The notes: generated by a model from the letters alone, not told the origin. A stretch of 64,000 bases of DNA from an uncultured Mycoplasmatota bacterium (GCA_900548725.1 URLV01000004.1:162-64161); one strand, 5' to 3'; shown: positions 34,710 to 56,915, counted from the first letter of the stretch. Numbers and translations: made by a program.

Positions 34710-34837
34710 AATTATTACTCCCTTCATACTTAAATATAAAAGGCAAGACATAAACAATAAATGTTCTGATTATATATACAATACTAAAACATATAAGTAT
34801 TTCGTCGAATAAAATCACATATAAAAAAATATGTTAA

Positions 34838-35620: not shown

Positions 35621-35622
35621 AT

Positions 35623-36519: not shown

Positions 36520-36536
36520 TAATTATAACCACCCTT

Positions 36537-37619
36537 CTAATCTTCTTCTCCCTTATTAACACTACCTAATCTAAATGTATCATCAGGCAAAACAACACCT
36601 TGTATACTTAAATAATCAATTAAATATTTAGTAGGATTTTGTATTTGATATTTACCATTCATAAATTTTTTATAAATTATATTTTTCTTAGCATGATTTT
36701 TTTCATTAACATAAAATTCACAAACTTCAAATATTTCTCTTTGAAATCTATTTAATTCTTTACTAAAATATCCCTTAACATATACACCAATTTGTACATA
36801 TCTATGAATACTTGATAAGAATTGTTCTATATCTTGACTACTTTCCATCAAACTATACATACGCATAGGAATACTACTTGCTTTATCACTATGTATAGTA
36901 GATAAAATATTATGTCCAGATGAAATACTATTACGTACAGCCATAACAGCCTCTGCACTACGTACTTCTGATAATAATATCCATTTAGGATTCTGTCTCA
37001 TACAACTAACAAGTACATCACTATAACTAGCAATATTATTTGTTTTAACAGCAACAATATCTCTATGAGGAAATATTTTGTCTAAATGTAATTCCAATGT
37101 ATCTTCTATAGTAATAATTTTTTCATTTTCTTTAGTATAGCTTGCTAAATATTTAACCAATTCAGTTTTACCACTACCAGTTTCTCCACTTACAATAATG
37201 TTACAATGACCTTCAACGCATTTAATTAAAAAATCATGTATCTCAACTGTAGTATATCTTTCATTAATTAATTTATCTTTATTAAGTCTTATTTTAGCAG
37301 GAGTTTTACGTATAACACACGCAATACCATTAGTACTAATAGATTCATGTATAAAGTTCATACGTAACTCAGCACTTTCAGCGTCCAAGAATGGAGAAGC
37401 CATATTAAATGTCTTCCCCATTACATTAGAACATTGAAATGCCAACTTCTCCATCATTGCATTATTAATCTCGGGTCTATCAACTTGATATATTCCCTTA
37501 GTCAATGATTTAAGCCATACTTGTCCACCATTACTATATGAAATATCTGTAATATCATCAGTCTCTAAAAATTCCTTTAAAGGTCCAAAATCTAATTGAG
37601 AAAACACAGCATCATTCAT
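36537..37619 (-). CDS. TadA/CpaF/VirB11-class secretion ATPase
   Basis: GETGSGKT Walker A, ITIEDTLEL Asp box, WILLSEVRS Walker B, ILSTIHS His box, IRK motif. Confidence 0.8.
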   Translation of the reverse strand: MNDAVFSQLDFGPLKEFLETDDITDISYSNGGQVWLKSLTKGIYQVDRPEINNAMMEKLAFQCSNVMGKTFNMASPFLDAESAELRMNFIHESISTNGIACVIRKTPAKIRLNKDKLINERYTTVEIHDFLIKCVEGHCNIIVSGETGSGKTELVKYLASYTKENEKIITIEDTLELHLDKIFPHRDIVAVKTNNIASYSDVLVSCMRQNPKWILLSEVRSAEAVMAVRNSISSGHNILSTIHSDKASSIPMRMYSLMESSQDIEQFLSSIHRYVQIGVYVKGYFSKELNRFQREIFEVCEFYVNEKNHAKKNIIYKKFMNGKYQIQNPTKYLIDYLSIQGVVLPDDTFRLGSVNKGEED

Positions 37620-37629
37620 ATATTATCAC

Positions 37630-38478
37630 CTAGTTTCCACTATTATTGTTATTATTTAAATCATTCATAGTTGTAGAAACATCAATTTCATCACTTAATT
37701 CAGATACTTTTGCAAGTATAAAATCAACTAATTCTTGTTTAGAAACTTGAGTACCATTTTCAGTATCTCCTTCATTTCTATATTGAGCATTTCTAGGTAC
37801 TGGAACTATTTCTATTCCACCAACAAAACTTGCTTCACTTAATAACATAAATAAGTTATCTTTAACAGCAAACAATAATTCACCACTACTTCTCTGTGTT
37901 TGACTATCGGCAAATACATCATTACCACTCGAATCTCTTACAGATAATACTTTAATACTTTCAATAAACTTACCAAAAATAACTTTACCATTATCATCAG
38001 TAGCTTTTAAATATAAATCTATAAAATTACCAGGCATAATTGAATTACCATAAGTACTATGACTATTAACACTTAAGCTAAATATAGTAGCTCCTTCATC
38101 AATATCATCAAAAGCAGTATCAGGTATTTTATCTTTTTCTACTAATTGAGATTTATAAAATAATCCACCTTCAGGTATAACAGTATCATAATTTACATAC
38201 CATTCTTTTGACATAATATATTGTTTACTAGTAACTAAATCTTGTGTTTGTTCAACAAATGCACCACTAACTTTTATAGTACCAACATTTTCAGCCTCAA
38301 CTTTACTCTTTGGTTCCATACGTTTTAGTGCATAAGGTACATTAACTGGTTGAACAGCTTGTTTTACTCTATAATTATAACCTACCAAAAGTACAGCAAC
38401 GCCAGCCAAAACACATAATACAGTTACAGTATTTTTGTTTCCTAAAAATCTTTTTAATTTTAACATTATATTTCCCAT
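37630..38478 (-). CDS. CpaB/RcpC-like pilus assembly protein
   Basis: N-terminal TM, SAF-like domain, SIMPGNFIDLYL and IKVLSV / LLFAV..L..A blocks typical of CpaB. GGAGG SD. Confidence 0.65.
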   Translation of the reverse strand: MGNIMLKLKRFLGNKNTVTVLCVLAGVAVLLVGYNYRVKQAVQPVNVPYALKRMEPKSKVEAENVGTIKVSGAFVEQTQDLVTSKQYIMSKEWYVNYDTVIPEGGLFYKSQLVEKDKIPDTAFDDIDEGATIFSLSVNSHSTYGNSIMPGNFIDLYLKATDDNGKVIFGKFIESIKVLSVRDSSGNDVFADSQTQRSSGELLFAVKDNLFMLLSEASFVGGIEIVPVPRNAQYRNEGDTENGTQVSKQELVDFILAKVSELSDEIDVSTTMNDLNNNNNSGN

Positions 38479-38531
38479 CTTATTCCTCCTATATTATATA
38501 CCATAATAATACTATATTTTAATAAACTTTT

Positions 38532-39572
38532 CTAGTCATAATCGTAATAAAAATCAATTTTATACTTAATACCTATCATACATGTATTATAGTAAGGAGT
38601 TTTTTCACAATTATCCCCACTACAACTATCTAAATATTCACTAGGAGTATTTAAATAATTAGACACGCTAGCTTTCTTTCTAAAAGGTTTAACTCCATGA
38701 TTTTCATTAAAACGTTCAACACCATCGCAACTATAATCTAATCCATATGCTAAATATTTTTTACCATTATCACCATCTACAACTGATATTCTTACATTTT
38801 CTACTTTAGCAAAAAAATCTCCATAATTACTAACACCATTTATTTTATTAATAGAACCAGTATTAACAGTATAATCATAAGTATCATTAAAATTAGTAAT
38901 ATAGTTTTCATGATCTTGTTGAGTACTCATAGTGTTTAAAAATTTAACATCCAATATTTTAATTTTATTTTTATCAAAACTTAAACCTTGCGCCTCTATC
39001 TTTTTTCTTATTTTTTTTACAACTTTAGAGTTATCTGAAAAGTTTAAAGGTACCTTATTAGTTACGGCACAATAACCAATATTGTCTTCTTTTCTATATT
39101 GATCCTCAACACTACAATCACCATAAGGTACTGAATAAAATATAAAATCGTTATCATCAGCAAAAACATTATTATTAGATTCAAGTATCGCATCATATGA
39201 ATTTACTACATCTATATTAGTAGCATCACCCGCTATATTAAAATCTCCAGTATTAGTAGTAACTCTAATACTTACACTAGGTGGATTTTCATAAACTGAA
39301 TAAAAATCTAACTTATATGTATTAGTCTTAGATACAGTTTCTGCAAATCTTCTAATAAATACCTCAACAAATTTTTCTGTGTTTATTCTTACTTCACCAT
39401 ATTTTTTATAGTAACTCCAATCTATAGAATCATGCATTGATCCATTAGTTACTTCTTTTAATAAATAATAATCTTGTTGATTAGTTGTTACCATATTAGA
39501 CATTAATATCATAACAGTACTAACCATTATTCCAAGTAAAATTAAATAATATCCCCACATCGACTCTTTCAT
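38532..39572 (-). CDS. N-terminally anchored extracellular protein, unknown family (346 aa)
   Basis: TM at residues about 7-28. No prepilin G/FxxxE site. 8 Cys in the C-terminal half. ATGA overlap with the upstream gene. Confidence 0.7.
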   Translation of the reverse strand: MKESMWGYYLILLGIMVSTVMILMSNMVTTNQQDYYLLKEVTNGSMHDSIDWSYYKKYGEVRINTEKFVEVFIRRFAETVSKTNTYKLDFYSVYENPPSVSIRVTTNTGDFNIAGDATNIDVVNSYDAILESNNNVFADDNDFIFYSVPYGDCSVEDQYRKEDNIGYCAVTNKVPLNFSDNSKVVKKIRKKIEAQGLSFDKNKIKILDVKFLNTMSTQQDHENYITNFNDTYDYTVNTGSINKINGVSNYGDFFAKVENVRISVVDGDNGKKYLAYGLDYSCDGVERFNENHGVKPFRKKASVSNYLNTPSEYLDSCSGDNCEKTPYYNTCMIGIKYKIDFYYDYD

Positions 39573-42500
39573 GGCGTTACTCCTTCATTAACTTTTCTAT
39601 ATAAACAATCATAATAATTAGATTCATTTTCTTTAAAACTACTACACTCATTTCCAGTATAACTAGTTAATTTATTTAATATGATCCACTGACCATTAAT
39701 ATAATATTTTCTGTTTTGTCTACCAGTTAATTTAGCGTTTACTCCATTTACATCCAAACCAGTTCCTAAACTTCCATTAGATAATCCATTCAAGAACATA
39801 CTTTCACATTCCATACCTAAACCATTACAATTAGTTGACCAATCAACGTTATCATATTTATTTAATTTATTATATTCTCTAATCTGATCCAAAGTATTAG
39901 CATTTAAGGTAAACGAATATTCCAAATTATTTGGATTATAAGTATTTTGATTTTTTGATTTATCTTCTATAATTTTCATTAAAGCTTGACCCTTAGTACT
40001 TGACCAATTAGCACCTAACAATCCTTTATCAAGTCTGTTATTAGGATCAACATCATTAGTTGCTATAGGTCGTACAAAAAATTTAGTCTTATATTTCTTA
40101 TTATTTTCAGTTTTATCTTTGGTTTCTTTATCCAATACTACAGCATCATTAGTAATTTTATATGTACATGTATATGTAGCATTATCTCCGTTTTTTAAAA
40201 CATTTTTTACATTACCCGATAAATTTGAATTATTTGTATCCATAACGAATTTTATGTTTCTTGTTCCACTACTAGCAATCTTAACCGGAAATACATTTCC
40301 TAATTTAATACTTTTATTATTGTAAGTCTCTACAATACTTCCTGTATAAAAATTAGTATAATAATCAAAATTAGTATGAAATTCATAATTAACTTTTTTG
40401 GTTCTTGTAGTAATATGATTATCACCAAAAGTATAAGCATTAAATTTCTCATTAGTACTACCATAACTTATATTATATTCTTCAGTAACATCTTTTCTAT
40501 CCAAATTATCATTGCTATAATAAGGATCATCAGTAATTAGTTTAACTTCATTATCTATGGTAGTATCTAAATCATATTTTATAGAAACATTAGGTTTTAC
40601 ACTATAAAATTTTTCTGTAGAAACTGAACTAGTAGATAATGTATTAAAGCAAGTTTTATTCATATTCTGTAGATTCTGTCTTTTACCTTTCTCTACAACA
40701 TAAGTACCATCTGTATCAGCACTTATTTCACTTAATTTTTTTGTAGTATCTAATTGTTGATATATTTGATTAAACAAACTACTTTTAGCAGTACTAATAT
40801 TATCATTTTCACAATATGTAGCACTTACACTTGTACCATTGTCATACGTTTTTGAAGAAATATCATAAACTTGAGGAGTAAAACTTACATTATATCTTTT
40901 ATAATATTCATAGCATTTTTTTGGATGTTCCCTTGTACCACAACTCCAACTTCTTTTTACACCACAACTACTATCTTCACTTCCATAATCACTAGGAGAA
41001 TTTATAACATTTATTCCTTCAGCATTTTGATAGTCAACATAGGCCTTTTTTTCATTATCAATTGCAATATTATAAGAAGTTTTCCACAAATCATAATTAA
41101 ATGTTTGAGTACATTTATAAGTAGACTTTACTTGTGGTGTATATATCAATTCAAAATAAGTACCAGATTTAACAGTTTCAAATATAGATGGATACGTATA
41201 TTCAAATGTTTCAGTACATTTCATAGGACAATATTTATTAATTGTATATGTTTTATTAGATTTAGTTATAGATTGATTATTTTCCAATGAATTAGTACTA
41301 TAATCATCAGTATTTTTAATTGTACTAGTTAATGTTGATTGATAATCATTTGCAACATCACAAGTTTTATATATATTAGTCATATTTTCAACGATATTTG
41401 AAAAATCATCACTATAACAAGCATAATAAGTACCTTCATAATTTAAATTGTTAATATTTAAACTAGTAGTTCCTCTCATAATATCTTTTGTACTACAATT
41501 ATTATTTTTACTCCAATAGCTAAACTTCCTACCAGTTCCTATTTCATATAAACCATTACCATCTAAAGTAGTAGTAACATCTGGTAAAGAAATAGTCTTA
41601 TTTTCAACTTGATTATTATCAGAATCATATTTAAAACTATACCTACAAACACCATTACTAATAGCATGCCCAGGACAATCCATTCCATATCCACTAGTTC
41701 CATCAAATGTAATATATTTAGTTTCAATAATAGGCAAACTACCACACATAGATGTATAGATATCTTTAAAAGTATTATCGCCATTTTCTATTAAGCTTTT
41801 AGCATAAGTACAAGCTTCATTTTTCAAACCATCAGAAACTTTACTTAAATAATCATCTAATCCAGTTGCATATCCATCAACATAGAATAAAGTATATCCG
41901 CAAGTATTTTTAGAACCGTAAACGCTTGAATTTGGTTTTAATATTCCCGTATATAAATTACCACCTTTTACTAATTTTAAACTCTCACAATTAACAGGTT
42001 CACTATAATAATTCTTTATTTTGCTTTTATCAATATCACCAGTTGAAGAAATACAATTATTTTTATACACATTTTCATATAAATTATAATTTTCTTGAAA
42101 TTTATTTACAATATCTTCTTTCATTTCAGAACAACTTTTTCCTTCATAAGAAACACTTAGTCTTTCACTATTAATTCCAGAATCATAACAATATGTATTA
42201 TAATAATTAATCTTTTCTTCATTAAAATAATAATTCTTTTTAACAAAACTTTTTTGAACATCACAAGCCGTTTTTTTTAAATCATTATCTGCTTTACTCA
42301 AATAAAAATTTAATCCTACAGCACAATGATTATATATATATAGTGGATAACCTTCTTCAACTTCATTATAATTAAAAACTTTATTATCATATTCAGCATA
42401 CCACTTATCACATTCATATTCATCATTTCTTACACCTTGACTATAAGAAACTTCGTATTTTTTTCCACTACTACTAACATTACTAACTTTAATATCTTTA

Positions 42501-42580
42501 TTATTAATAAGCACAATACTTCCTAAAATAAGAACTAAAAAAACAATAAATACTATAATCTTATTTTTTAACTTAATCAA
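39569..42580 (-). CDS. 1003-aa N-terminally anchored, Cys-rich extracellular protein, unknown family
   Basis: Single N-terminal TM, many Cys, an internal duplicated module (C86-C131 and C227-C279), no C-terminal TM. Confidence 0.75.
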   Translation of the reverse strand: MIKLKNKIIVFIVFLVLILGSIVLINNKDIKVSNVSSSGKKYEVSYSQGVRNDEYECDKWYAEYDNKVFNYNEVEEGYPLYIYNHCAVGLNFYLSKADNDLKKTACDVQKSFVKKNYYFNEEKINYYNTYCYDSGINSERLSVSYEGKSCSEMKEDIVNKFQENYNLYENVYKNNCISSTGDIDKSKIKNYYSEPVNCESLKLVKGGNLYTGILKPNSSVYGSKNTCGYTLFYVDGYATGLDDYLSKVSDGLKNEACTYAKSLIENGDNTFKDIYTSMCGSLPIIETKYITFDGTSGYGMDCPGHAISNGVCRYSFKYDSDNNQVENKTISLPDVTTTLDGNGLYEIGTGRKFSYWSKNNNCSTKDIMRGTTSLNINNLNYEGTYYACYSDDFSNIVENMTNIYKTCDVANDYQSTLTSTIKNTDDYSTNSLENNQSITKSNKTYTINKYCPMKCTETFEYTYPSIFETVKSGTYFELIYTPQVKSTYKCTQTFNYDLWKTSYNIAIDNEKKAYVDYQNAEGINVINSPSDYGSEDSSCGVKRSWSCGTREHPKKCYEYYKRYNVSFTPQVYDISSKTYDNGTSVSATYCENDNISTAKSSLFNQIYQQLDTTKKLSEISADTDGTYVVEKGKRQNLQNMNKTCFNTLSTSSVSTEKFYSVKPNVSIKYDLDTTIDNEVKLITDDPYYSNDNLDRKDVTEEYNISYGSTNEKFNAYTFGDNHITTRTKKVNYEFHTNFDYYTNFYTGSIVETYNNKSIKLGNVFPVKIASSGTRNIKFVMDTNNSNLSGNVKNVLKNGDNATYTCTYKITNDAVVLDKETKDKTENNKKYKTKFFVRPIATNDVDPNNRLDKGLLGANWSSTKGQALMKIIEDKSKNQNTYNPNNLEYSFTLNANTLDQIREYNKLNKYDNVDWSTNCNGLGMECESMFLNGLSNGSLGTGLDVNGVNAKLTGRQNRKYYINGQWIILNKLTSYTGNECSSFKENESNYYDCLYRKVNEGVTP

Positions 42581-43254
42581 ACCAAATCACCTCTTTTTTT
42601 ATTGATTTTAATAATAGCTACAAAACCAATAGAAACACAAATAACAATTAGTACAATGTACCAATATTCTTTTAATATTTTAATTAAATCATCTATACCA
42701 AACTTATTTATTACTTTAGTATCTTCTTTAACATTTAAACTTTCTTTATATTTATTAATATTTTCTTTAATTTTATCATCATTTAGACTAAATTTATTAT
42801 TAAGCAAAGGTTTACAATATTGATAATCTTTTATTCCATTACATATATCCATATAGTAATATCTATTTATTATTTTCTTAGTAATAGTTTTAGTAGTTAA
42901 TTTATTACCATAACAAGAACTATTACTAACATAAATAGTAACTCTATAAGTTATAATATCATCAATATTATTATCAATAAAACTGTAATGATTATCTACC
43001 ATGTCATAACTATGTACTTCTTTATTTTCTTCAGTTTTACTATTATATATATTAACGTATAATTCATCATCTAAATTATATAAATTAAATACAAAATATT
43101 TATTATTTAAATCAGGTTCAAAATATACTTCTATATCTTTAGACTTTTCTAATAAATTTTTTCTTTCTTGATAATTACATTCAGCATTAACTACATTACT
43201 AAAAACAAACATAAATACAAATATAACTATGATATATTTAATATTTTTCTGCAT
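42577..43254 (-). CDS. secreted/type I membrane protein, unknown family (225 aa)
   Basis: Start moved to MQKNIKY.. after a GGTGG SD. Signal peptide ..VVNA/E, 4 Cys ectodomain, C-terminal TM and KKRG tail. Confidence 0.7.
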   Translation of the reverse strand: MQKNIKYIIVIFVFMFVFSNVVNAECNYQERKNLLEKSKDIEVYFEPDLNNKYFVFNLYNLDDELYVNIYNSKTEENKEVHSYDMVDNHYSFIDNNIDDIITYRVTIYVSNSSCYGNKLTTKTITKKIINRYYYMDICNGIKDYQYCKPLLNNKFSLNDDKIKENINKYKESLNVKEDTKVINKFGIDDLIKILKEYWYIVLIVICVSIGFVAIIKINKKRGDLV

Positions 43255-43291: not shown

Positions 43292-43340
43292 AAAAAAACA
43301 AATTAAAGAAAAATCAATTCAATTCTTCAATTTGTTTTTT
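43292..43340 (-). terminator. Rho-independent terminator after yukD
   Basis: Minus strand AAACAAATTGAAG..CTTTAATTTGTTT (13-bp stem, one G-U) followed by a T-run. Confidence 0.65.
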
Positions 43341-43344
43341 ATAA

Positions 43345-43611
43345 TTAGCACAATACAAGTGTACTACCATTTACAATATTTGTATTATATACAAAATCAT
43401 CTAAATTATAACATATTGCTTCATTGGCATTATATAAGTTCAAAGTAGAATTATCATTAAAAGATCCCTGAGATAAATCTTTTAAAGCTTTTGATAACAA
43501 ATACACTATTTCGCCAATTGTTTTATTAATCGGTATCAAAATATCATATGTTTCATATAACATAGGTACCACCAATTGTACATTATATTTACTCTTCATT
43601 TTCATCACCAT
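43345..43611 (-). CDS. YukD/EsaB-like ubiquitin-fold T7SS protein
   Basis: 88 aa, beta-grasp-like pattern (YDILIPINKTIGEIV..., C-terminal GSTLVL). Overlaps the essC stop. Confidence 0.6.
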   Translation of the reverse strand: MVMKMKSKYNVQLVVPMLYETYDILIPINKTIGEIVYLLSKALKDLSQGSFNDNSTLNLYNANEAICYNLDDFVYNTNIVNGSTLVLC

Positions 43612-46600
43612 TAAAATAATCTAATAATTTAATTTTAGTAATTATACCATTTTCAAACACAAATCCAAATTTATCAGTAATAGTATCTCTATACTCTCTA
43701 AGCATTCTTCCACTTTTTAAAATCATTTGTTCACTAACACCATTTCCTATCCAAATTCCCCTATTATTATTAATATTGGTTTTATAGAATTCTTCAAATT
43801 CTAACTTTTTCAATACGTTTGATGCTTCTATAAAAATAGTTGATACATTATCCTTTTCATTTAATAATTTTAATATATTATTAAATTCTTTTTTCAACAG
43901 TATATCAAAACTACTATAAATATCATATATTCCTAAGAAACATATAAAATAATTAATTTCATTTTTATTATCCAATTTCATAGCAAAATTTTTCAATTGG
44001 TTTAAATATTCAACATAATTATTATTTATAACATTTGGTATACCCATTATATTATTATATTTTTTATACGAATTAAACAAATAAACTTTATTATTATTAA
44101 AAGATAATATGTTTTTTAATAAACTATTATAAAAATTAATCAAAATATCGATATCTAATCCAGAAACTAAAACTCCACGTTTAGACATAAAACCATATTT
44201 AATTATATTTAAATTATCTACATTTACTCCGATAGGAATATTCAAAGGATCATTTAAATATTTTTTTATAATATCATAAGTAACTATTGTCGGTAAAACA
44301 GGTATTGCTCTAACTTTGTTATAAATTGAAATTAACTCATTAGATCTATTTTCAATCATATCTATATTTGACATTTCATTAGAAATATATGCTGTCTGAA
44401 ATTCGTAAATATTTTCTAGTTTAAGTAAACCTCTGCCTTTAATTTTACTTGGAATATTCAATACTCTACTTCCATAAATATTTGAATAATCGTATTTATC
44501 TTTTAATTCTAAAGTTAATGTTTGTTTAAAATTTTGTAAAATTTTCGTTCTAACACTATTTATTGAATTTGTAGTTATAATTATTGTTATACCATATTTA
44601 TTACATTCTCTAGACAACTTAAGAAATTCATCATTTAATGAATCATAATTTTCAAATAATATTTCTATAACATTAATAAATAAAATCACACAAGGTATTT
44701 TTTTATCAACATTTTTTTTATTATATGTTATTAAATCTCCATTAAAATCAATCAAAATTTTTTTTCTTTGTTCTATCAAAGAATTTAAATACTTAAAAGT
44801 ATTAAATATTTTCTCTTTATTATCTATAAATATTACATCCCCAACATGTGGTGTTTTATTGAAGTTAATTAAGGATTCACTTCCAAAATCCATAATATAA
44901 ATATTAACTTCTGATGTATCATACTTATCAATAAGTGAATAAATCATAACTTGTAATAGCATTTCTTTACCAGAATCAATTATTCCATATATTACTAAAT
45001 TACCCTTTCCTAACAAATCAACAGTAGCTAAACCTTTCTGTTGCATTTCGGGAGCATCATACTCACCAAATACTACAGTAATATTAGAATTTTTTTCAAA
45101 ATTATATTTTTTTAACAAATCATCATAATAAATTTTATCAGGAATTAATTCTCTCCATAATCCTTTAATATTAATGTTTAATTCTTTAGACAAGTTTATA
45201 ATTTTTTTTACAATATTACTAACTACTTTTCCTTGATTATTAATATTTACATTTTCCTTTGAACTAATAGTATATATATTTTTTCCATTAAAATCTAAAA
45301 ATTCTAATGTTTCACTTTTAATATCTACATCATCTTTTTCGTAATATTCCGAACCTGCATAAGCACTTTGACCTTTAACAAATAATTCATTAAAACCTAC
45401 TTGCAAATAAAATCTTCCAGGTTCTTTTAACAACGCAGCATCAGATACACGTATCATTTCACTTGAATCAGACTTATCTTGCACTTTCAAACATATTTTG
45501 AATCTTGAGTTCGACCAAATTTGATTATCAACAACACCACTTGGTTTTTGAGTTGATAATATCAAATGTATACCTAAACTACGTCCAATTCTAGCAATAG
45601 AAATTAATTCTTCTATAAATTCTGGATTTTGTTCTTTTAACTCAGCAAATTCATCACTGATTATAAATAAATGACTTAATCTTTCAATATCATTATGCAT
45701 AAAATATAAATTTTCGTATTTATATATATCCATATTACCTTCATTATATTTTATACTAGCAGTAGCAAATAATTTTTGTCTTCTCTTAATTTCACTTTTT
45801 AAAGATATTAAACTCCTATTTATTTCATTTTCATTTATATTAGTAATAACTCCAACAACGTGTGGTAAAATCATCCCTATATTAGAATTATAAAAAGTAT
45901 TAGCAAGCCCTCCACCTTTATAATCTATCAATATAAATTGAACTTCTTCAGGACTGTAATTTACTGCTAAAGACAAAATGTAAGTAATTAATAATTCTGA
46001 TTTCCCACTTCCTGTCATTCCAGCTATTAAGCCATGAGGACCGTGAGCATTTTCATGAACATTAAGTAGAACTAAATCTCCATTATCATCTATCCCAATA
46101 GGCACTGACAAAGAATTAATAATTGAACTGTTATTCCACCTAGACTTTATATTTAATGAATCAATATTTCCAACATTATACATCTCTAAAAAATCGTATT
46201 TTGTTGGTAACACAAATTTTTTCTCAAAAAAATCTAAACTAATATTTGACAAATTTTTATAACACAAACTAAAATCATCATCAATAATATCTGGAATAAA
46301 ATTATTTTCTACATAATCCATATTTTCATTAATTATTAATTTACCACCATCTTTATCTAAAAATATAAAATTTTTACAATCACTCGGTAAAGAATCCATT
46401 TTATTACTATTAAAAATAATTGTAAAACCTAAATTTAAATCATTTTTTATAATATTATTTAATACAGAAATATTTTTTATTTTTGTTTCATCATCCACAA
46501 ATATTACATAATTTTCAAAAAATATATTATCCTTTTCATTATTTTCAATTAAATTTAATCTCTCATTATATTTTTCATCAATATAATTAATTATTAAATT

Positions 46601-48154
46601 ATATGATAAAGAATCATAACCAAAAAATCTTAAATTCATCTCATCATTCCAAATGTAAGGTAAATCTATATAAGTTTTCCAATAATTAATATTGTTTTTA
46701 TCAGTCAATACAATAATTTTTAAATCATCATAACTACAACTAGCAAACAACCTAATTAAAAAACTTGATATATATTTATATAAATAATTTGAATTACCTA
46801 TAAAAGAAACAACATTATTTTGTTGAAAATCAAAAACAATAGGAACTTCATTTATATAATTTGTTTCTTCTTGAAGTTTTGTCAATTGTATTCGTAATTT
46901 ATCTCTATCTATAGTAAAATGCTCTTCCGGTATTTCAATTTTTATATTAGGTTTTATTCTTCCAATACCTAATGAGATAGTCAAAAAATTATTACTATCT
47001 TTTTTTCGTTCCCATAATTTACTATTTATAGTTTCAATTATTTCTTTAGACTCTAAAGTATTATAATAAGTATTACAAATTTCGTTCTTTTGAAAATTCA
47101 TTTCATTTATTATTAATCTCTTTTTCTCATAAATATAATCTTTATATTCTGATATTCTTTTTATTTCTCTTTTACTTTCTCTTTTTTTGCGATAAACGTT
47201 TGATAAAATCGGATATAATATCATAGCAATTAACATACAACTTGCTACAATTAAACTTCCCAAACTGTCTTCTAAAGTTTTTTCTTTCATAGTAATATTA
47301 TTAATAATATTTATTATTGTTATCATAGAAGTCATTGACATCAACATCATAGGAAGCATATTAATAATTAATGGCACATCTTCTTTTAATTCTTGATTTC
47401 CTGGTCCATCAATTTTAAAAACTTTTGTTTCTATTTTTCTCTGAATTTTAGGAACTCTTTTAAATTTTAGCAATGATTTGTTTTCATTAATATTTCCCTG
47501 TATTAAATATTTTGTATAATCATTAATAACTTTATCTATCAAAACTAAACTATTTTTTTTATAAATAAATTTATTATTATCGTGAGATATAACAATGATA
47601 TTTTTTAGTATATTAATAAAAACTCCATCAAAAAAGATATTGCTACCATACTTGACTTTTTCGTTATTATATTTATTTTCACATACGTATATAGCTTCTT
47701 TTACATCTTTCAAATTAATTTTAAAAAAATTATCTCCCAAAATAAATTCAATTTTAGAGTACTCAAATTTTTCACTTTCAATAATAATATCTGCATCAAC
47801 AAAATATTTTCCAGCTAAAACAATTTTAGAATTAGATGAATTAAACGTAAATTTTTTATAATCATCATCAAAATCATTTAAATAATATAAAGTATAAACT
47901 TGATTGGTTTCAATATTCAAAATATAATAAATACAATTTATTTCTAAAATTTGACTTTCTATAACATTATTCTTATCTTCAAAATCTTTAATTATTTTAT
48001 ATTTTTTATTTGAATAAATAACATAATTTTGTTCATTTAATTTTACATTAACAATTTCATCTTCATGATAATCATGTAACCAAAAATTTGATGATTTATT
48101 ATCAAAAATTTGTTTCCAAGTTAAATGATTTCCATCTGATAGTATCATCCTCAC
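43589..48154 (-). CDS. essC: T7SSb ATPase EssC/YukB (FtsK/SpoIIIE family)
   Basis: 1521 aa. FHA-like N-terminus, two TM helices, then three P-loop modules: D1 GMTGSGKSE with FIISDEFAELK, D2 GIIDSGKE, D3 degenerate. Confidence 0.9.
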   Translation of the reverse strand: MRMILSDGNHLTWKQIFDNKSSNFWLHDYHEDEIVNVKLNEQNYVIYSNKKYKIIKDFEDKNNVIESQILEINCIYYILNIETNQVYTLYYLNDFDDDYKKFTFNSSNSKIVLAGKYFVDADIIIESEKFEYSKIEFILGDNFFKINLKDVKEAIYVCENKYNNEKVKYGSNIFFDGVFINILKNIIVISHDNNKFIYKKNSLVLIDKVINDYTKYLIQGNINENKSLLKFKRVPKIQRKIETKVFKIDGPGNQELKEDVPLIINMLPMMLMSMTSMITIINIINNITMKEKTLEDSLGSLIVASCMLIAMILYPILSNVYRKKRESKREIKRISEYKDYIYEKKRLIINEMNFQKNEICNTYYNTLESKEIIETINSKLWERKKDSNNFLTISLGIGRIKPNIKIEIPEEHFTIDRDKLRIQLTKLQEETNYINEVPIVFDFQQNNVVSFIGNSNYLYKYISSFLIRLFASCSYDDLKIIVLTDKNNINYWKTYIDLPYIWNDEMNLRFFGYDSLSYNLIINYIDEKYNERLNLIENNEKDNIFFENYVIFVDDETKIKNISVLNNIIKNDLNLGFTIIFNSNKMDSLPSDCKNFIFLDKDGGKLIINENMDYVENNFIPDIIDDDFSLCYKNLSNISLDFFEKKFVLPTKYDFLEMYNVGNIDSLNIKSRWNNSSIINSLSVPIGIDDNGDLVLLNVHENAHGPHGLIAGMTGSGKSELLITYILSLAVNYSPEEVQFILIDYKGGGLANTFYNSNIGMILPHVVGVITNINENEINRSLISLKSEIKRRQKLFATASIKYNEGNMDIYKYENLYFMHNDIERLSHLFIISDEFAELKEQNPEFIEELISIARIGRSLGIHLILSTQKPSGVVDNQIWSNSRFKICLKVQDKSDSSEMIRVSDAALLKEPGRFYLQVGFNELFVKGQSAYAGSEYYEKDDVDIKSETLEFLDFNGKNIYTISSKENVNINNQGKVVSNIVKKIINLSKELNINIKGLWRELIPDKIYYDDLLKKYNFEKNSNITVVFGEYDAPEMQQKGLATVDLLGKGNLVIYGIIDSGKEMLLQVMIYSLIDKYDTSEVNIYIMDFGSESLINFNKTPHVGDVIFIDNKEKIFNTFKYLNSLIEQRKKILIDFNGDLITYNKKNVDKKIPCVILFINVIEILFENYDSLNDEFLKLSRECNKYGITIIITTNSINSVRTKILQNFKQTLTLELKDKYDYSNIYGSRVLNIPSKIKGRGLLKLENIYEFQTAYISNEMSNIDMIENRSNELISIYNKVRAIPVLPTIVTYDIIKKYLNDPLNIPIGVNVDNLNIIKYGFMSKRGVLVSGLDIDILINFYNSLLKNILSFNNNKVYLFNSYKKYNNIMGIPNVINNNYVEYLNQLKNFAMKLDNKNEINYFICFLGIYDIYSSFDILLKKEFNNILKLLNEKDNVSTIFIEASNVLKKLEFEEFYKTNINNNRGIWIGNGVSEQMILKSGRMLREYRDTITDKFGFVFENGIITKIKLLDYFNGDENEE

Positions 48155-48251
48155 AATATCACAACCCTACTATAATCATTTTAACAATTTTTTACTAATT
48201 TGTCACCAAATTTTATTAACAAAAAAAGATTACCTCCAAGTAATCTTTAAC

Positions 48252-48551
48252 TTATACATTTGATATTGATTGAGCTGCTGCAGCATCAGTTTCTTCATTT
48301 CTAGCAGTAACAGTATAAATATGGTTTTTCATATTAACAACAGCTTGATAAAAACTATCATAACTACTTCTAATTTCTTGATATCTACCATTGGAAACAT
48401 CTGCACCACTACTCTGCCATGATTCCCCATATAAAGATTTCATAGATGAATCGATATTGTCAAAAATTTGCATTATATTATCAGCATTATTTTTTATAGC
48501 ATCGGCATAACCTCTTGCAGCTTCATAATCTTTTTCTTCAAATTCATTCAT
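48252..48551 (-). CDS. WXG100-like small helical protein (degenerate WQSSG)
   Basis: 99 aa, two-helix layout, ..YGESWQSSGAD... Confidence 0.6.
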   Translation of the reverse strand: MNEFEEKDYEAARGYADAIKNNADNIMQIFDNIDSSMKSLYGESWQSSGADVSNGRYQEIRSSYDSFYQAVVNMKNHIYTVTARNEETDAAAAQSISNV

Positions 48552-48568
48552 TTTTTCTTAACCTCCTT

Positions 48569-48865
48569 CTAAAATAAATTTTTTGCTGCACTCGCATTTT
48601 GTTGTTCAGTATCATCAAAAGTATGTGCACCTTCAGATATTTTTTCTCCTAAAACAGTTAACAATTCTCTAAAAGAATTCAAATTAACAACTTGACTATC
48701 CGTAGCTTCTTTAAATGAATTTGCAGAAACTCCTTTCCAAATTGACATTAAAGATTCTACATTAGTTGATAAATTAGTTATTTCATTAGCAAAAGATTCT
48801 GCATTATCAACAGTATTCAATCCTTGACTATTCATACTTTCAGGATCTACATGTAATCCAGACAT
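48569..48865 (-). CDS. WXG100 family protein (EsxA-like)
   Basis: 98 aa, central IWKGVSANSF WXG motif. Confidence 0.8.
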   Translation of the reverse strand: MSGLHVDPESMNSQGLNTVDNAESFANEITNLSTNVESLMSIWKGVSANSFKEATDSQVVNLNSFRELLTVLGEKISEGAHTFDDTEQQNASAAKNLF

Positions 48866-48904
48866 ACAACTCCTCCTTTCAAAATATTATATAAAATTTC
48901 AAAA

Positions 48905-49198
48905 TCAAATCAATTTTGAAACTTTATTATCAGTTTGTTTATAATTATTTTTTACATTTTGTAAATGCGGTGATAATAAAATAAATTTACCTCTAGAATC
49001 ATTTATACTTTTTTTAATAATACTCCAATTAGAAATAATTAAATCTGAAAGATTACCTACTAATACTTCTTCAGAACTAATATTTTTCATATTTTTATCT
49101 AATTGATTTACAAAGTCATTTATTTTAACTCCCGTATTGACAACAACAGAAGCAGCATCCTCAAATATTTCATAATTATTAATATTAAAATTATTCAT
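48905..49198 (-). CDS. small helical T7SS-associated protein (no WXG)
   Basis: 97 aa, same size class and operon position. No W-x-G. Confidence 0.5.
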   Translation of the reverse strand: MNNFNINNYEIFEDAASVVVNTGVKINDFVNQLDKNMKNISSEEVLVGNLSDLIISNWSIIKKSINDSRGKFILLSPHLQNVKNNYKQTDNKVSKLI

Positions 49199-49209
49199 AA
49201 AACACCACC

Positions 49210-49497
49210 TTACAAATTCACATTCGAAAAATCATTTTCCAACGCTTCTATCTTGTTTATACTTTCACTAATAAATTGAATAAACCTCGTAATTTCATTA
49301 ATTTTAGCTTGCAATTGCAACACAAAGTCGTCACTCGTATCTCTAAATGAATCACTTGCAACCCCATCCCAACCATTGACAGAATTTAATATTTTGTCTT
49401 TATATAACTTAATTTGTTTATTTAAATTTTCAACCTCATTATTCATTTCAGTAATACATTGTCTTGCAACATCAAAATCACAAACATATTTTGCCAT
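49210..49497 (-). CDS. WXG100 family protein
   Basis: NGWDGVASDSF WXG motif. Start at MAKYV.. after a GAGGTGA SD. Confidence 0.75.
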   Translation of the reverse strand: MAKYVCDFDVARQCITEMNNEVENLNKQIKLYKDKILNSVNGWDGVASDSFRDTSDDFVLQLQAKINEITRFIQFISESINKIEALENDFSNVNL

Positions 49498-49638
49498 ATT
49501 TATCACCTCAATCTAAAATAGTTTTTTTCATCATAACTATAATAATATTATATTACATTTCTGTTATTTTACTAAAATCTAAAAAATAACTTTAATTAAA
49601 ATGTCGATATTTTAAATTTAAAAACATATTCACAAAAT

Positions 49639-50679
49639 TTACTTTTCACCAAAATACTTTCCATAATTTGTAGCTTTAGTTATGCATTGTCTCCATTCAG
49701 GATGACATTTCGCAGTACCTGGATTTGAGTGGTTAGAATCGTACCAACTTTTTTTATCAACAATAAATTCAACAATAGTTTGACCATTATCATGACCCCA
49801 CTTATTACATCCATAATCATTTTGATTTTTTACATCTCCAATAATACATTTAATAACTGACCCATCTGCCTGTTCAAAATCAACAGAATCTCCAACTTCT
49901 CCAAAAGTTGTAGTTGTTGCAACTACATATCTATCTCCTATTTTAGCAAAACCTTCGGAATCATATGATTCCCCTGCTTTCTCTCTCAGTTTATATTGTT
50001 CAGATGTTTTTGAAGTAATCATTTGCCATCCCATATATGTATGAACTTTTCCTAAATTATTTGGCACATTTATCACTTTTTGTTCTTTTAAATTATTATC
50101 ATTTTGAATTTGAGACACAGTTTGATTTTCAAGAACGACTTGTTCCTCAGAAACATTTTGCTTTTTAGAATCATTAGAATTGCCAGTTGGTATAATTAAT
50201 TTTTGACCAACATGAATTAAACTAACATTTTTTATATTATTTACAGATGCTAAAGCAGATACAGTAGTTCCATATTTATATGCTATCTCACTTAAAGTAT
50301 CCCCACTAACAACAGTATAATTAAAATTTTTAGAATCAGAAGAACTTAAGGAATTATCATTATTCAAAACTTCCACATTATTATTTACAATAGAAACTTC
50401 ATTAATGCTAGAACTAATTTCAAATTGAAAACTATTTTGCAAGTTGGTGTGTGACTCTATAATATTATTAAGTAAATTAAATGAGTTATTCATTTTGTTT
50501 ATGGTTTCATCTACATTACTCAATATAGCTTTTTTTGCACCTTCAAAATTAAACTCCAATGCATCTCCAACATCATAAGATTGTATAGAATTTCTAACAT
50601 TTTCTAAATCATTACTAGAAACCTTAATCATATCAGCAACAGAACTAACAGCTTCTACATCCAAAATAAATTTTGTCAT
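49639..50679 (-). CDS. T7SS-substrate-like N-terminal helical domain, LysM, and an uncharacterised C-terminal domain
   Basis: About 100-aa helical N-terminus. LysM ([37 protein letters not shown]). C-terminal 140 aa ([26 protein letters not shown]) unplaced. Confidence 0.65.
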
Positions 50680-50714
50680 ATCATCATTACTCCTTTTTTA
50701 TTTTAAAATAAACA

Positions 50715-51641
50715 TTAACTACCTGTATAAGTAAAATGCATTGGATCAGTACGATCAGACCAATCTCCACCCCAATAAAATCCATGCTTTTTCCATATTG
50801 CCACAACTTTTTCATTATTATAAAATTTAGAATCTTTATCTCCATGTGTACAAAAGCCATTTGCACTTACATTTAAATCTATTGCTGCTCCATAACTATG
50901 ATGAGATAATTTGCTACTACCTTCCATATTTCTAAAACAAAAACTTGCACTATCACTTACTGGAAATCCAATTTGATATAATTCATTATAAACAGCCTTT
51001 ACCTCTTCAGCCAATTTTTTATGAACTTGTATTTTTAAATCACGTGATACTCCATTTCCGTCATAAGCCTTAACAGTAATTATTGTCATATACTTTCTTG
51101 CTTGACTTTGAGTAGTTGGTTTGCCATCAGGAAACAAATATTTTAATCTTTGATTCTTTGGAATTTTAGCGGCTTCTCCAACAGTAGGAACTAATCCTAA
51201 CAAACCAGTAGTATCAGCAAAAGCACTAATAGAATCTCCACTTTTAATAGAAGTTATAATTGCTGATAATAATTTTTCAATTTCATTTTTCAATCCAGTT
51301 AAATGTTCGTTACAGGTAGAGACATTATCTAGTAAAGCTTTCTTTTCATTATCATCCTGACAATTAATTATTTGAGATTCAATACTCTCTTTTTCTTCTT
51401 TTTTAGTTTTATACTCATTAAACTTTCTTACCGCACCAGCATAGCTATTTAATTGACTATTAATAGGTTCATCAAATAAATTTAAAAAATCATTAACTTT
51501 AGATACAAAATTATTTCTAGAACTACCACTCCAATAATTTTGACTTATAGTATTAATTGATTCACTAACTTTAGAAAAAGACTTAGCAAAGTATTCACGA
51601 TCAGAATTAATTGTTGCCTCTAAATTTACTAAATCAGTCAC
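50715..51641 (-). CDS. WXG/LXG-like N-terminal domain fused to an M15 (VanY-type) peptidoglycan peptidase
   Basis: NYWSGSSRNNF WXG motif in the helical N-terminus. C-terminal SHHSYGAAIDLN and DPMHF zinc-peptidase motifs. I prefer the GTG start at 51641 (after AGGCTAGGTGA). The ORF-track extension to 51776 reads like AT-rich promoter DNA. Confidence 0.7.
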   Translation of the reverse strand: MTDLVNLEATINSDREYFAKSFSKVSESINTISQNYWSGSSRNNFVSKVNDFLNLFDEPINSQLNSYAGAVRKFNEYKTKKEEKESIESQIINCQDDNEKKALLDNVSTCNEHLTGLKNEIEKLLSAIITSIKSGDSISAFADTTGLLGLVPTVGEAAKIPKNQRLKYLFPDGKPTTQSQARKYMTIITVKAYDGNGVSRDLKIQVHKKLAEEVKAVYNELYQIGFPVSDSASFCFRNMEGSSKLSHHSYGAAIDLNVSANGFCTHGDKDSKFYNNEKVVAIWKKHGFYWGGDWSDRTDPMHFTYTGS

Positions 51642-51814: not shown

Positions 51815-52447
51815 ATGAAAAAATCAACATTAAATATATTAATCTATATTTTATTTCCAAGTATAATACCTCTATTCTTTACGAATAATCCTCATTCAAA
51901 AGAATACATTATTTATTTGTTTATATCTTATATCTTATTAACAACATATTTCACAACTATTTATAAAGAAGAATTAATAAATAATTTAAAGAAATTAAAT
52001 AAAAAAAATATATTAATAACATTAATATATTTTATAGTAGGTTTCTTATTGATGGTATTATCTAACTATATTATAAATTATATTATAATACCAAATGGTA
52101 TATCTAATAATGAACAAGGTAATAGAGAATTATTATTAAATAATAAATTATTATATGGTATATTATTAACACTAATAATACCATATATAGAAGAAATATT
52201 ATTTAGATTAAGCTTAAAAAAAAGTATAAAAAACAATACTGTATTTATATTAGTATCATCATCTATATTTGGTTTATTACATATAGTATCAACTACTAAA
52301 CTTATAGAATTATTATACTTTATACCATATTTTATATTAGGTTTAACATTTAGTACAATATATACTAAAACAAACAACATATTTTGTAGTACAATATCAC
52401 ATATATTAAATAATACAATAACAGTACTAATAATATTATTATTTTAG
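51815..52447 (+). CDS. CPBP family intramembrane protease (Abi/CAAX-like)
   Basis: IPYIEEILFR (EExxxR), FGLLH and HILNN motifs. Polytopic. Confidence 0.8.
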   Translation: MKKSTLNILIYILFPSIIPLFFTNNPHSKEYIIYLFISYILLTTYFTTIYKEELINNLKKLNKKNILITLIYFIVGFLLMVLSNYIINYIIIPNGISNNEQGNRELLLNNKLLYGILLTLIIPYIEEILFRLSLKKSIKNNTVFILVSSSIFGLLHIVSTTKLIELLYFIPYFILGLTFSTIYTKTNNIFCSTISHILNNTITVLIILLF

Positions 52448-55429: not shown

Positions 55430-55732
55430 ATGAAAAAATTACCAGATTTATTTACAAATACTTTTAACAAAAAGATTGATAACAACGAAGAATATATTAC
55501 TATTAAAAATGATAATACTCCATTAGAAAAGCCATCAAAATATGAACTTAATAAAAAAATAGATAATATATTTAAATCAAATGATTATATTTATAAAATC
55601 AAAGTAAATATTACTTTAAAAGATAAAGAAATAATATGCACTTTAATAGGTAAAACAAACAATAATCTAATTACTATTGATAACAAACTAATAAATATAA
55701 AAGATATAATAGATATTAAAAAAGTTGATTGA
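55430..55732 (+). CDS. hypothetical protein (100 aa)
   Basis: SD present. Followed by a TCTAGT..ACTAGA hairpin and T-run. Confidence 0.5.
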   Translation: MKKLPDLFTNTFNKKIDNNEEYITIKNDNTPLEKPSKYELNKKIDNIFKSNDYIYKIKVNITLKDKEIICTLIGKTNNNLITIDNKLINIKDIIDIKKVD

Positions 55733-55820: not shown

Positions 55821-55896
55821 TGGTGTCTCGTATGCGACTTGAACGCATGACCCTTTGATTAAAAGTCAAATGCTCTACCAACTGAGCTAACGAGAC
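55821..55896 (-). tRNA. tRNA-Lys (UUU)
   Basis: Anticodon loop CTTTTAA. CCA encoded. Confidence 0.9.
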
Positions 55897-55913
55897 GAAT
55901 ATAATAATTAAGA

Positions 55914-55989
55914 TGGCTGCCTCGGGTGGGTTCGAACCACCGGAATGTCAGAGTCAAAGTCTGATGCCTTACCACTTGGCTACGAGGCA
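55914..55989 (-). tRNA. tRNA-Gln (UUG)
   Basis: Anticodon loop CTTTGAC, U1-A72 acceptor, CCA encoded. Confidence 0.9.
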
Positions 55990-55997
55990 ATCTAAAG

Positions 55998-56081
55998 TGG
56001 TGGAGGGACATGGATTTGAACCATGGAACCCGAAGGAACAGATTTACAGTCTGCCGCGTTTGACCACTTCGCTATCCCTCC
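55998..56081 (-). tRNA. tRNA-Tyr (GUA)
   Basis: Anticodon loop CTGTAAA, long variable arm. Confidence 0.9.
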
Positions 56082-56086
56082 AAAAG

Positions 56087-56162
56087 TGGTGCCGACAGAG
56101 GGAGTCGAACCCCCAACCTACTGATTACAAGTCAGTTGCGCTGCCAGTTACGCTATGTCGGC
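56087..56162 (-). tRNA. tRNA-Thr (UGU)
   Basis: Anticodon loop CTTGTAA. Confidence 0.9.
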
Positions 56163-56168
56163 AAAAAA

Positions 56169-56245
56169 TGGTGGGCGATATAGGACTCGAACCTATGACC
56201 CCCTGCTTGTAAGGCAGGTGCTCTAACCAACTGAGCTAATCGCCC
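56169..56245 (-). tRNA. tRNA-Val (UAC)
   Basis: Anticodon loop CTTACAA. Confidence 0.9.
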
Positions 56246-56268
56246 GAGAGATATTCTAAACAAATAAA

Positions 56269-56357
56269 TGGTGCCCAAGGCCGGACTTGAACCGGCACGA
56301 GGGTTAAATCTCGCAGGATTTTAAGTCCTGTGCGTCTACCTGTTCCGCCACTTGGGC
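56269..56357 (-). tRNA. tRNA-Leu (UAA)
   Basis: Anticodon loop CTTAAAA, long variable arm. Confidence 0.9.
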
Positions 56358-56370
56358 GACACCACTCGGC

Positions 56371-56388
56371 GTCTTAATTAATTAAGAC
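56371..56388. repeat. perfect 18-bp palindrome in the leader of the minus-strand tRNA operon
   Basis: GTCTTAATTAATTAAGAC lies between the predicted -10 and tRNA-Leu. Confidence 0.7.
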
Positions 56389-56394
56389 TATTTG

Positions 56395-56423
56395 AGTATA
56401 ACCCAAAAATAAATTTAAATCAA
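56395..56423 (-). promoter_or_regulatory. promoter of the Leu-Val-Thr-Tyr-Gln-Lys tRNA operon
   Basis: Minus strand TTGATT (56418-56423), 17 nt, TATACT (56395-56400). Confidence 0.6.
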
Positions 56424-56512
56424 CACTTTTTTTCAATTTTTTTAAAAAAATAGCAAAAAAGTTAAAATTTTATAAAAAATTACACTTTTTTTATGTTTTT
56501 TTCCAAAATTTG

Positions 56513-56542
56513 TTGACTAATTTTATTTTTATATGCTATAAT
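56513..56542 (+). promoter_or_regulatory. promoter of the Ser-fMet-Asp-Phe tRNA operon
   Basis: TTGACT (56513-56518), 18 nt, TATAAT (56537-56542). Confidence 0.65.
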
Positions 56543-56566
56543 CAACTTGTTCCTTGAAGAACAAAT

Positions 56567-56657
56567 GGAGAAATACCCAAGTCCGGTTGAAGGGACTGGT
56601 CTTGAAAACCAGGAGGTCGGCAACGGCGCGGGGGTTCGAATCCCTCTTTCTCCGCCA
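56567..56657 (+). tRNA. tRNA-Ser (UGA)
   Basis: Anticodon loop CTTGAAA, long variable arm. Confidence 0.9.
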
Positions 56658-56674
56658 ATTAATTTTATATTCAT

Positions 56675-56751
56675 CGCGGGATGGAGCAGTTCGGTAGCTC
56701 GCTGGGCTCATAACCCAGAGGTCGTAGGTTCAAATCCTACTCCCGCAACCA
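56675..56751 (+). tRNA. initiator tRNA-fMet (CAU)
   Basis: CGCGGG 5' end with a C1/A72 mismatch and GGG/CCC in the anticodon stem. Confidence 0.85.
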
Positions 56752-56753
56752 AT

Positions 56754-56830
56754 GGTCCGTTAGTCTAGAGGCCTATGACGTCTGCCTGTCACGCAGAAGA
56801 TCACGGGTTCGAATCCCGTACGGACCGCCA
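56754..56830 (+). tRNA. tRNA-Asp (GUC)
   Basis: Anticodon loop CTGTCAC. Confidence 0.9.
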
Positions 56831-56839
56831 TTTTTTATT

Positions 56840-56915
<76 letters not shown>

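Follow-up and report, generated by a model that had tools for sequence, protein, structure and literature searches.

We examined a 64,000-nt stretch of DNA from an uncultured Mycoplasmatota bacterium (GCA_900548725.1 URLV01000004.1:162-64161; the window, below) for a type VII secretion system (T7SS). The original prediction, made from the sequence, was of a reduced system of the type VIIb class (T7SSb), with the ATPase EssC, a YukD-like protein and WXG100-like proteins but without recognisable EssA, EssB or EsaA. That reading held when profiles, membrane topology and related loci were checked, and the open reading frames (ORFs) reported for it were all found in place on the minus strand. Its limits, 43345 to 49506, proved too short: two hydrolase genes lie upstream on the same strand and belong to the locus, which extends from 43345 to 51641 (Table 1).

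Table 1. Genes and other features of the T7SS locus and of the pilus-like locus beside it, in window coordinates
Feature	Position	Strand	Basis or remark
308-aa putative substrate, Peptidase_M15_4	50715..51641	-	Pfam E 3.5e-18; mechanical ORF to 51776
346-aa putative substrate, LysM	49639..50679	-	Pfam LysM E 2e-18
W1, 95-aa probable WXG100-superfamily protein (GWDG)	49210..49497	-	hhalign; ORF reaches 49506
W2, 97-aa helical protein without WXG	48905..49198	-	hhalign profile comparison
W3, 98-aa core WXG100 protein (IWKG), EsxA-like	48569..48865	-	Pfam WXG100, 31.0 bits
W4, 99-aa core WXG100 protein (SWQSSG), EsxB-like partner of W3	48252..48551	-	Pfam WXG100, 32.0 bits
EssC, 1521 aa	43589..48154	-	TIGR03928, 907.8 bits
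Ubl, 84 aa, YukD/EsaB/TsxB-type	43345..43599	-	Family Pfam matches, AF2 and Foldseek; ORF reaches 43611
AT-rich 18-bp hairpin with U-run	43293..43340	-	RNA fold
Tad/CpaF-type pilus-like locus	30226-43254; 33345-34451	-; +	Directly downstream of T7SS

Ten further distinct loci were reached through homologues of EssC (46-98% identity) and of the ubiquitin-like protein (Ubl) in metagenomes and metagenome-assembled genomes (MAGs). About 10 kb on either side of essC was inspected at each, with Pfam matches taken from precomputed lists. At every one of these loci essC is followed by an overlapping gene for a Ubl of 79-87 aa, and two WXG100-like genes of ~95-100 aa stand alongside. The invariant core across the relatives is thus EssC, Ubl and a pair of WXG100-like proteins. 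Overlaps that couple translation between genes are kept, and the flanks vary: glycosyltransferases lie downstream in L002 and L010, RNase J nearby in L004, dnaJ or pgm upstream with L21-Prp-L27-Obg downstream in L007, L011 and L012, an ABC transporter after the T7SS in L013, an 886-aa LXG-like protein with a DUF4176 chaperone in L014, and SecG upstream in L015. YukC, EssA and EsaA were absent from the Pfam lists within ~10 kb of essC at all ten related loci. The survey of essC neighbourhoods thus returned the same small core each time and no EssB, EsaA or EssA, in keeping with the prediction.

EssC passes the NCBIfam model TIGR03928 (T7_EssCb_Firm; cutoff 778.4 bits), matches Pfam FtsK_SpoIIIE with an E value of 5.6e-46 and is matched by Bacillus subtilis YukB (PDB 9qks) with an E value of 2.3e-105. 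From the N terminus, it consists of tandem degenerate FHA domains, two transmembrane (TM) helices, a D0/DUF module, and D1, D2 and D3. The sole canonical Walker A/B pair lies in D1 (GMTGSGKS at residue 712 and LFIISDEFAELK at residue 829); D2 has a degenerate P-loop, GIIDSGKE, and D3 has none. Of the architecture first proposed, the two TM helices and the single canonical module stand, but the count of three modules does not, because the degenerate D0 module that precedes D1 brings the NTPase-like modules to four. The essC frame of ~1500 aa is intact in relatives that range from 98% to ~30% identity, and their D1 Walker motifs are near-invariant.

The FHA-like character of the EssC N terminus was less plain from profiles. 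Pfam FHA found no match in the window EssC or in its 46-98%-identical relatives, although it does match EssC relatives at 40% identity or less. We modeled residues 1-250 with AlphaFold2 (AF2) from an alignment of 27 sequences, and the model was all-beta with a pLDDT of 86.3. Just three structures matched it in Foldseek at an E value of 0.001 or below: YukB of the B. subtilis T7b core unit (9qks_H), the N-terminal domain of Staphylococcus aureus EssC (1wv3) and the EssC FHA structure 5fwh. Since these were the only matches at that level, we conclude that the N terminus is, by its predicted fold, a genuine T7SSb-type tandem FHA, as had been proposed and despite the absent Pfam match.

The gene that follows essC had been described as a YukD-like gene of 88 aa overlapping the essC stop. 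The overlap is real (11 nt) and the Ubl fold was recovered; the length was revised, since homologues support 84 aa with a start at 43599. The window Ubl matches Pfam YukD weakly (E value of 0.067), and in a sample of the family four of seven members matched YukD (best E value, 2.6e-4) and five of seven the ubiquitin-like domain UBL_ZFAND1. A PDB profile search with the family alignment did not find YukD (2bps), and a fold prediction was therefore needed. The AF2 model, built with 70 homologues, has a beta-grasp fold (pLDDT of 92.1). Its Foldseek matches include the EccD1 Ubl (4kv2) and ESX-5 EccD (7npt), and 2bps was absent from the top 50. The protein ends in LVLC, without Gly-Gly. A single-sequence search with the 88-aa protein gave one match only, whereas a profile search gathered 738 clusters at 90% identity, nearly all of them 84 aa long. 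Hence, selection maintains the system, and it is common in this lineage of uncultured bacteria. One 84-aa member (P0137, from a Bacilli bacterium MAG at NCBI) bears the name 'methyltransferase', almost certainly in error; the other members are unnamed and without a precomputed Pfam match.

Upstream of essC, four genes encode the small helical proteins W1 to W4. Their translations agree with the prediction: W1 and W3 have a clear WXG motif (GWDG and IWKG), that of W4 is degenerate (SWQSSG), and W2 has none. The W1 gene is present as described, but its start at 49506 is not supported, since homologues favor a 95-aa protein from 49497. Only W4 and W3 pass the Pfam WXG100 gathering score of 27.3 bits; W1 and W2 fall below it, with E values of 0.0084 and 0.039. 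By hhalign, W3 and W1 were linked at 95.6%, W4 and W1 at 93.4%, W4 and W2 at 92.5% over their full length, and W3 and W4 at 89%. On these profile comparisons, all four are probably members of the WXG100 superfamily.

The four differ in how they are distributed. W3 is present at every related locus checked, at 45-74% identity in L002, L006, L008 and L010 and in recognisable form at the four-gene loci L007 and L011-L013. W4 always adjoins it and is 54-79% identical in relatives. The orthologues of W1, which begin MAKYVCDF, sit beside hydrolase genes in relatives. W1 is likely a Lap-like partner or chaperone of a larger substrate, and W2 is likely a second partner protein.

The two genes at the head of the locus encode peptidoglycan hydrolases. 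That for the M15 peptidase begins with a GTG at 51641, after an AGGTGA ribosome-binding site and in agreement with a 308-aa gene call; with this start, the mechanical ORF loses its hydrophobic leader, which was spurious. The N terminus of the protein is a WXG100-like helical domain (NYWSGSSRNNF), and the motif N-x-W-x-G-x-S-[RK]-[DN]-N-F is kept in the N termini of relatives, where it is fused to CHAP or NlpC/P60 instead of M15. The second protein has a helical N-terminal domain, LysM and a 150-aa C-terminal domain without an assigned family, which matched nothing significantly among PDB sequences. A conserved counterpart of its first 165 aa lies upstream of essC in L002, L006, L008 and L010. 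In L004, the N- and C-terminal parts are split over two proteins, and the C-terminal domain (61% identity) lies downstream of essC.

Against the W1 family, hhalign gave 72.6% for the N-terminal domain of the M15 protein and 78.9% for that of the LysM protein. PDB profile searches with the two N-terminal alignments returned spurious coiled coils (coronavirus spike heptad repeats) or nothing. Neither hydrolase has a signal peptide or a TM segment by hydropathy. With WXG-like N termini and no signal peptide, both are likely T7SS substrates. A helical targeting domain that is swapped among enzymatic domains beside small WXG100-like genes is the pattern of polymorphic T7SS substrates and their Lap-type partners (PMC11217815).

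Two other gene families were seen near these hydrolases or their counterparts. Divergent from the first hydrolase gene, at 51815-52447 on the plus strand, lies a gene for a CPBP/Rce1-like membrane protein (CAAX protease, 'Abi'); it is not conserved at the related T7SS loci. Such proteins have often been put forward as giving self-immunity to bacteriocins. A FemAB-family peptidyltransferase gene stands within a few kb of the T7SS in L013 (13937-15199), L014 (14407-15648) and L015 (18224-19468), and none was seen in the window. Because FemAB-type cross-bridge modification is an immunity route against secreted peptidoglycan hydrolases of the lysostaphin type, these genes could be linked to hydrolase effectors.

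Candidate effectors of other kinds occur elsewhere in the clade. One is the LXG-like protein of L014 with its DUF4176 chaperone. Another heads the T7SS cluster in L002 (4279-6153, 624 aa) and L010 (4475-6223, 582 aa). In it, a helical N terminus is joined by an acidic linker of low complexity to a long hydrophobic region rich in glycine, and repeats follow at the C terminus. The protein has no Pfam match and no homologue in the window or at the other loci. Its mid-protein hydrophobic stretch led us to consider it as an EssB analogue. We rejected this, as the stretch is long, glycine-rich and preceded by an acidic linker, no kinase-like match was found, and the window and other loci have no homologue. 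The protein is more likely a membrane-acting T7SS effector.

We then asked whether EssB, EsaA or EssA might be encoded elsewhere in the window. The Pfam scan covered essentially every ORF of at least 90 aa in the 64 kb, leaving out two short ORFs over tRNA genes and a few ORFs that overlap larger genes. Three neighbours downstream of the Ubl gene, of 225 aa (237 aa as an ORF), 1003 aa and 346 aa, had been named as possible divergent forms of EssA, EsaA and EssB. Pfam and NCBIfam models of YukC, EssA and EsaA found none of them, even at E values of up to 0.1-1, and EssB/YukC, EsaA/YueB and EssA/YueC had no match among the other window ORFs in the Pfam scan. A hydropathy screen of the window ORFs found none with the EssB layout of a single mid-protein TM segment, as had been stated; the sole single-segment match lay inside RecA. 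By tblastn, homologues of the three neighbours or of Tad genes were not near essC at any related locus, so that neither profiles nor relatives support their identity with the absent components.

What these neighbours do resemble is a pilus locus. The 225-aa gene has a homologue-supported ATG at 43254 after an AAGGTGG ribosome-binding site, and hydrophobic segments mark both ends of its product, a leader at the N terminus and a TM helix at the C terminus. The 1003-aa protein is Cys-rich and, as described in the prediction, is EsaA-sized with an N-terminal hydrophobic segment only and lies behind a terminator; it has no EsaA match. The 346-aa protein is DUF5411 (E value of 1.4e-49), a family noted in gut Firmicutes as part of predicted pilus-like systems of the CpaF/PilC kind (PMC9523054). 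The reading frames of the three genes overlap, and the series continues directly with genes for CpaB/RcpC, a CpaF/TadA-type ATPase and a pair of polytopic TadB/C-like proteins. Farther along, a 221-aa protein is encoded, as is one of 774 aa that carries a prepilin N-methylation motif. We conclude that the 225-, 1003- and 346-aa genes belong to the adjacent Tad/CpaF-type pilus locus. The prepilin motif recurs in a 176-aa protein (13868-14398, minus strand) encoded next to tRNA-Pro, far from this locus.

Between the Ubl gene and the 225-aa gene stands the AT-rich hairpin (dG of -15.7 kcal/mol, z of -3.96), and none of 200 shuffled sequences folded as well. Here the T7SS operon probably ends at an intrinsic terminator, which bears out the one behind which the 1003-aa gene had been placed. 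A GC-dependent consensus scan downstream of the Ubl gene detected nothing, because its GC rule excludes an AT-rich hairpin.

Tad genes are not beside the T7SS in L002, L004, L007 or L010-L015. The closest relatives with longer contigs, L006, L008 and L009, end just after the Ubl gene and cover no downstream neighbours. These three independent assemblies all break ~300-700 bp past that gene, suggesting that the DNA after the T7SS in this sublineage is repeated or varies among strains.

From the gene content, the domain folds and the conservation of the four-gene core, we infer that the locus is, rather probably, a self-contained minimal T7SS of so far undescribed gene content. In B. subtilis, YukD is held between the FHA and DUF domains of YukB in the core unit, and YukB has been modeled in a 2025 structure as a hexameric central channel with YukC around it, a hexamer that was not obtained experimentally (PMC12637312). 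By analogy, the Ubl would sit clamped between FHA and D0 in EssC and hold the two in position relative to each other. A hexamer of EssC would form the only membrane channel, with no EssB/YukC, EsaA/YueB or EssA/YueC involved, and D1 alone would be catalytic. The obligatory, co-secreted core substrate would be a W3/W4 heterodimer. The cargo would be the M15 peptidase and the LysM protein, exported by means of their WXG100-like N-terminal targeting domains, and W1 and W2 would probably be their small helical partners. Once outside, the hydrolases might attack the walls of neighbouring Gram-positive bacteria, like bacteriolysins, or open the producer's own wall, like EssH.

We extend this proposal to the clade with more reserve. 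It is a serious possibility, though one we would put at somewhat under even, that a natural four-gene T7SS (EssC, an 84-aa Ubl clamp and a WXG100 heterodimer) suffices for export in a widespread uncultured clade of gut Bacillota, with leaderless peptidoglycan hydrolases as its main cargo alongside other polymorphic effectors.

Several points weigh against a self-contained system and against the cargo proposed for it. Our view takes in 64 kb of this genome and, in relatives, ~10 kb on either side of essC, and partner genes could lie elsewhere or be too divergent or novel for recognition. EssB, EsaA and EssA are essential in characterised T7SSb systems, and retention of the tandem FHA speaks for a partner of some kind. 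For the hydrolase N termini, the case for a WXG-like nature consists of a conserved motif and moderate hhalign values (73-79%). No immunity gene is evident next to the hydrolases.

Perhaps, then, this is a canonical T7SSb that has been split, with essB, esaA and essA, or very divergent forms of them, elsewhere on the chromosome? EssC does pass the T7SSb equivalog model, each genome is visible in part only, and the EssB/YukC pseudokinase is the known partner of FHA2 in the tandem FHA that is retained here (PMC12637312). It is mainly because the missing EssB leaves FHA2 without that known partner that we allow for an unrecognised component encoded elsewhere. However, essB, esaA and essA are clustered with essC in characterised T7SSb loci (PMC11217815), and here ten distinct loci with unrelated flanks all lack them within ~10 kb of essC, as does the 64-kb window. 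We therefore regard a split T7SSb as unlikely.

Less likely again is a T7SS-pilus hybrid, in which the 225-, 1003- and 346-aa proteins or the whole Tad-like apparatus would serve as functional analogues of EssA, EsaA and EssB. T7SSg and T7SSh always adjoin Tad genes (PMC11217815), and DUF5411, for its part, is tied to CpaF/PilC systems with no reported T7SS link (PMC9523054). The neighbours are directly adjacent and on the same strand, and the leader and C-terminal TM of the 225-aa protein and the size and N-terminal TM of the 1003-aa protein would suit such roles. Yet a strong hairpin splits the two operons, and the three genes overlap mutually and continue into cpaB and cpaF. None matches an EssA, EsaA or EssB profile, and no homologue of them or of Tad genes lies near the essC of relatives.

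That the locus is a decaying, non-functional T7SSb leftover whose membrane partners were lost in genome reduction might be read from the very AT-rich genome (~24% GC) and from the degeneracy of the D2 and D3 P-loops and of one WXG motif, but it is most improbable: the essC frame is intact from 98% to ~30% identity with near-invariant D1 Walker motifs, 738 Ubl clusters keep a constant 84-aa length, coupled gene overlaps are kept, effector genes are diversifying at the loci, and degenerate D3 domains also occur in working systems.

The remainder of the window indicates what kind of genome carries this T7SS. GC content is ~24%, and nearly all genes are on the minus strand. The window encodes RecA, RNase Y, PNPase, S15, TrmD, RimM and L21-Prp-L27, a class B RNase P RNA and 12 tRNAs, together with SpoIID, a germination protease, YunB, an SpoVE/FtsW-type protein and a sigma factor. 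The tRNA arrays, low GC content and one-strand gene order led us to consider a jumbo phage or megaplasmid, which we dropped in view of the housekeeping and sporulation genes. Megablast against phage and plasmid collections also gave no match. The DNA is chromosomal and comes from a spore-forming bacterium of the Bacillota. Contigs from metagenomes and MAGs, the longest of 97 kb, carry the same EssC. Among relatives with a name, the nearest are MAGs labelled 'uncultured Bacilli bacterium', from Hadza gut samples, and 'uncultured Mollicutes bacterium UMGS1266'.

Two further regions of the window were noted. Ten tRNA genes form two divergent arrays (six minus, four plus) within 1.1 kb at 55821-56915. 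Of two ORFs of 99-100 aa in the tRNA region, at 55430-55732 and 55913-56212, the second overlies tRNA genes and is probably spurious. A gene at 4647-7469 (minus strand), transcribed towards rimM-trmD and immediately preceding it, encodes a 940-aa surface protein; its thioester domain (TED), combined with five prealbumin-fold repeats of the SpaA type, suggests a covalent adhesin.

If the four-gene core is sufficient, the EssC hexamer alone would be the membrane channel, a point of some interest as the identity of the T7SSb channel and its indispensable components are still unsettled. The clade keeps a T7SSb-type EssC, the FHA and the Ubl clamp and appears to dispense with EssB, EsaA and EssA; it would thus offer a ready-made minimal system for reconstitution and structural work, and may show the smallest working form of a T7SS. 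A further implication is that hydrolases of the cell wall that carry WXG-type targeting domains may form a class of T7SS cargo. To the T7SSa-j catalogue it would add an eleventh gene arrangement, in uncultured gut lineages that the catalogue missed because it was built from RefSeq.

How does this gene set compare with the known systems? Garrett, Higginson and Palmer (2024, PMC11217815) defined T7SSc-j from RefSeq, using the phylogeny of the ATPase and the genes around it, and T7SS variants without EssA, EssB and EsaA or with few components are already documented among them (PMC11217815). Because such variants are established, the locus is another variant rather than an anomaly.

Its EssC is T7SSb-like in its tandem non-canonical FHA, two TM helices, D0 and three FtsK-like modules and in passing TIGR03928. 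Also as in T7SSb, there is a discrete YukD/EsaB-type Ubl, there are WXG100 proteins (W3 and W4 above the Pfam gathering score) that may be secreted, and polymorphic substrates with helical N-terminal targeting domains are predicted beside small helical partners. Unlike T7SSb, the locus has two non-identical core WXG100 proteins rather than one EsxA, and its predicted substrates are peptidoglycan hydrolases with WXG-like N termini. EssB/YukC, EsaA/YueB and EssA/YueC were not found in the window or beside the essC of relatives, and the Pfam FHA signal is absent from the closest relatives of the window EssC. Only the TIGR03928 score and the FHA fold point EssC to the T7SSb side.

Among the other variants, T7SSg of Acetivibrio and Paenibacillus is 'relatively simple', with two WXG100 proteins, a Ubl and an ATPase, and directly adjoins Tad pilus genes, as the T7SS does in the window (PMC11217815). 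However, TsgC has no FHA, whereas EssC here has a predicted tandem FHA, and the DUF5050 beta-propeller TsgL has no counterpart, with no DUF5050 among the window ORFs at the Pfam level. T7SSg and T7SSh are always next to Tad genes (PMC11217815), an adjacency seen here in the window but not in L002, L004, L007 or L010-L015. T7SSh also differs in an ATPase without FHA and in TshG/TshM (PMC11217815). T7SSf of Clostridia, likewise found in low-GC anaerobes, has a WXG100 protein, a Ubl and an ATPase with an FHA in which the residues that bind phosphothreonine are poorly conserved (PMC11217815). Its PPM phosphatase TsfF, DUF6382-FHA protein TsfJ and TadZ-like AAA+ protein TsfV were not found here: PP2C, DUF6382, a separate FHA and TadZ-AAA+ gave no match in the window Pfam scan or in the precomputed Pfam lists of relatives. 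T7SSd, T7SSe and T7SSj have kinases and large Ig-like proteins (PMC11217815), unlike this locus.

The nearest parallel to the proposed cargo is EssH of the S. aureus T7SSb, also a T7SS-linked peptidoglycan hydrolase with a non-catalytic N-terminal domain, which cuts the producer's own wall to let T7SSb cargo through (PMC13059805). The catalytic domain is CHAP in EssH, M15 here, and CHAP or NlpC/P60 in relatives. In contrast to EssH, the hydrolases here have no hydrophobic leader and have WXG-like N termini, which suggests that they leave through the T7SS itself. The gene set as a whole matches none of T7SSc-j, and the best reading of the locus is as one more T7SS variant, a minimal one, next to them.

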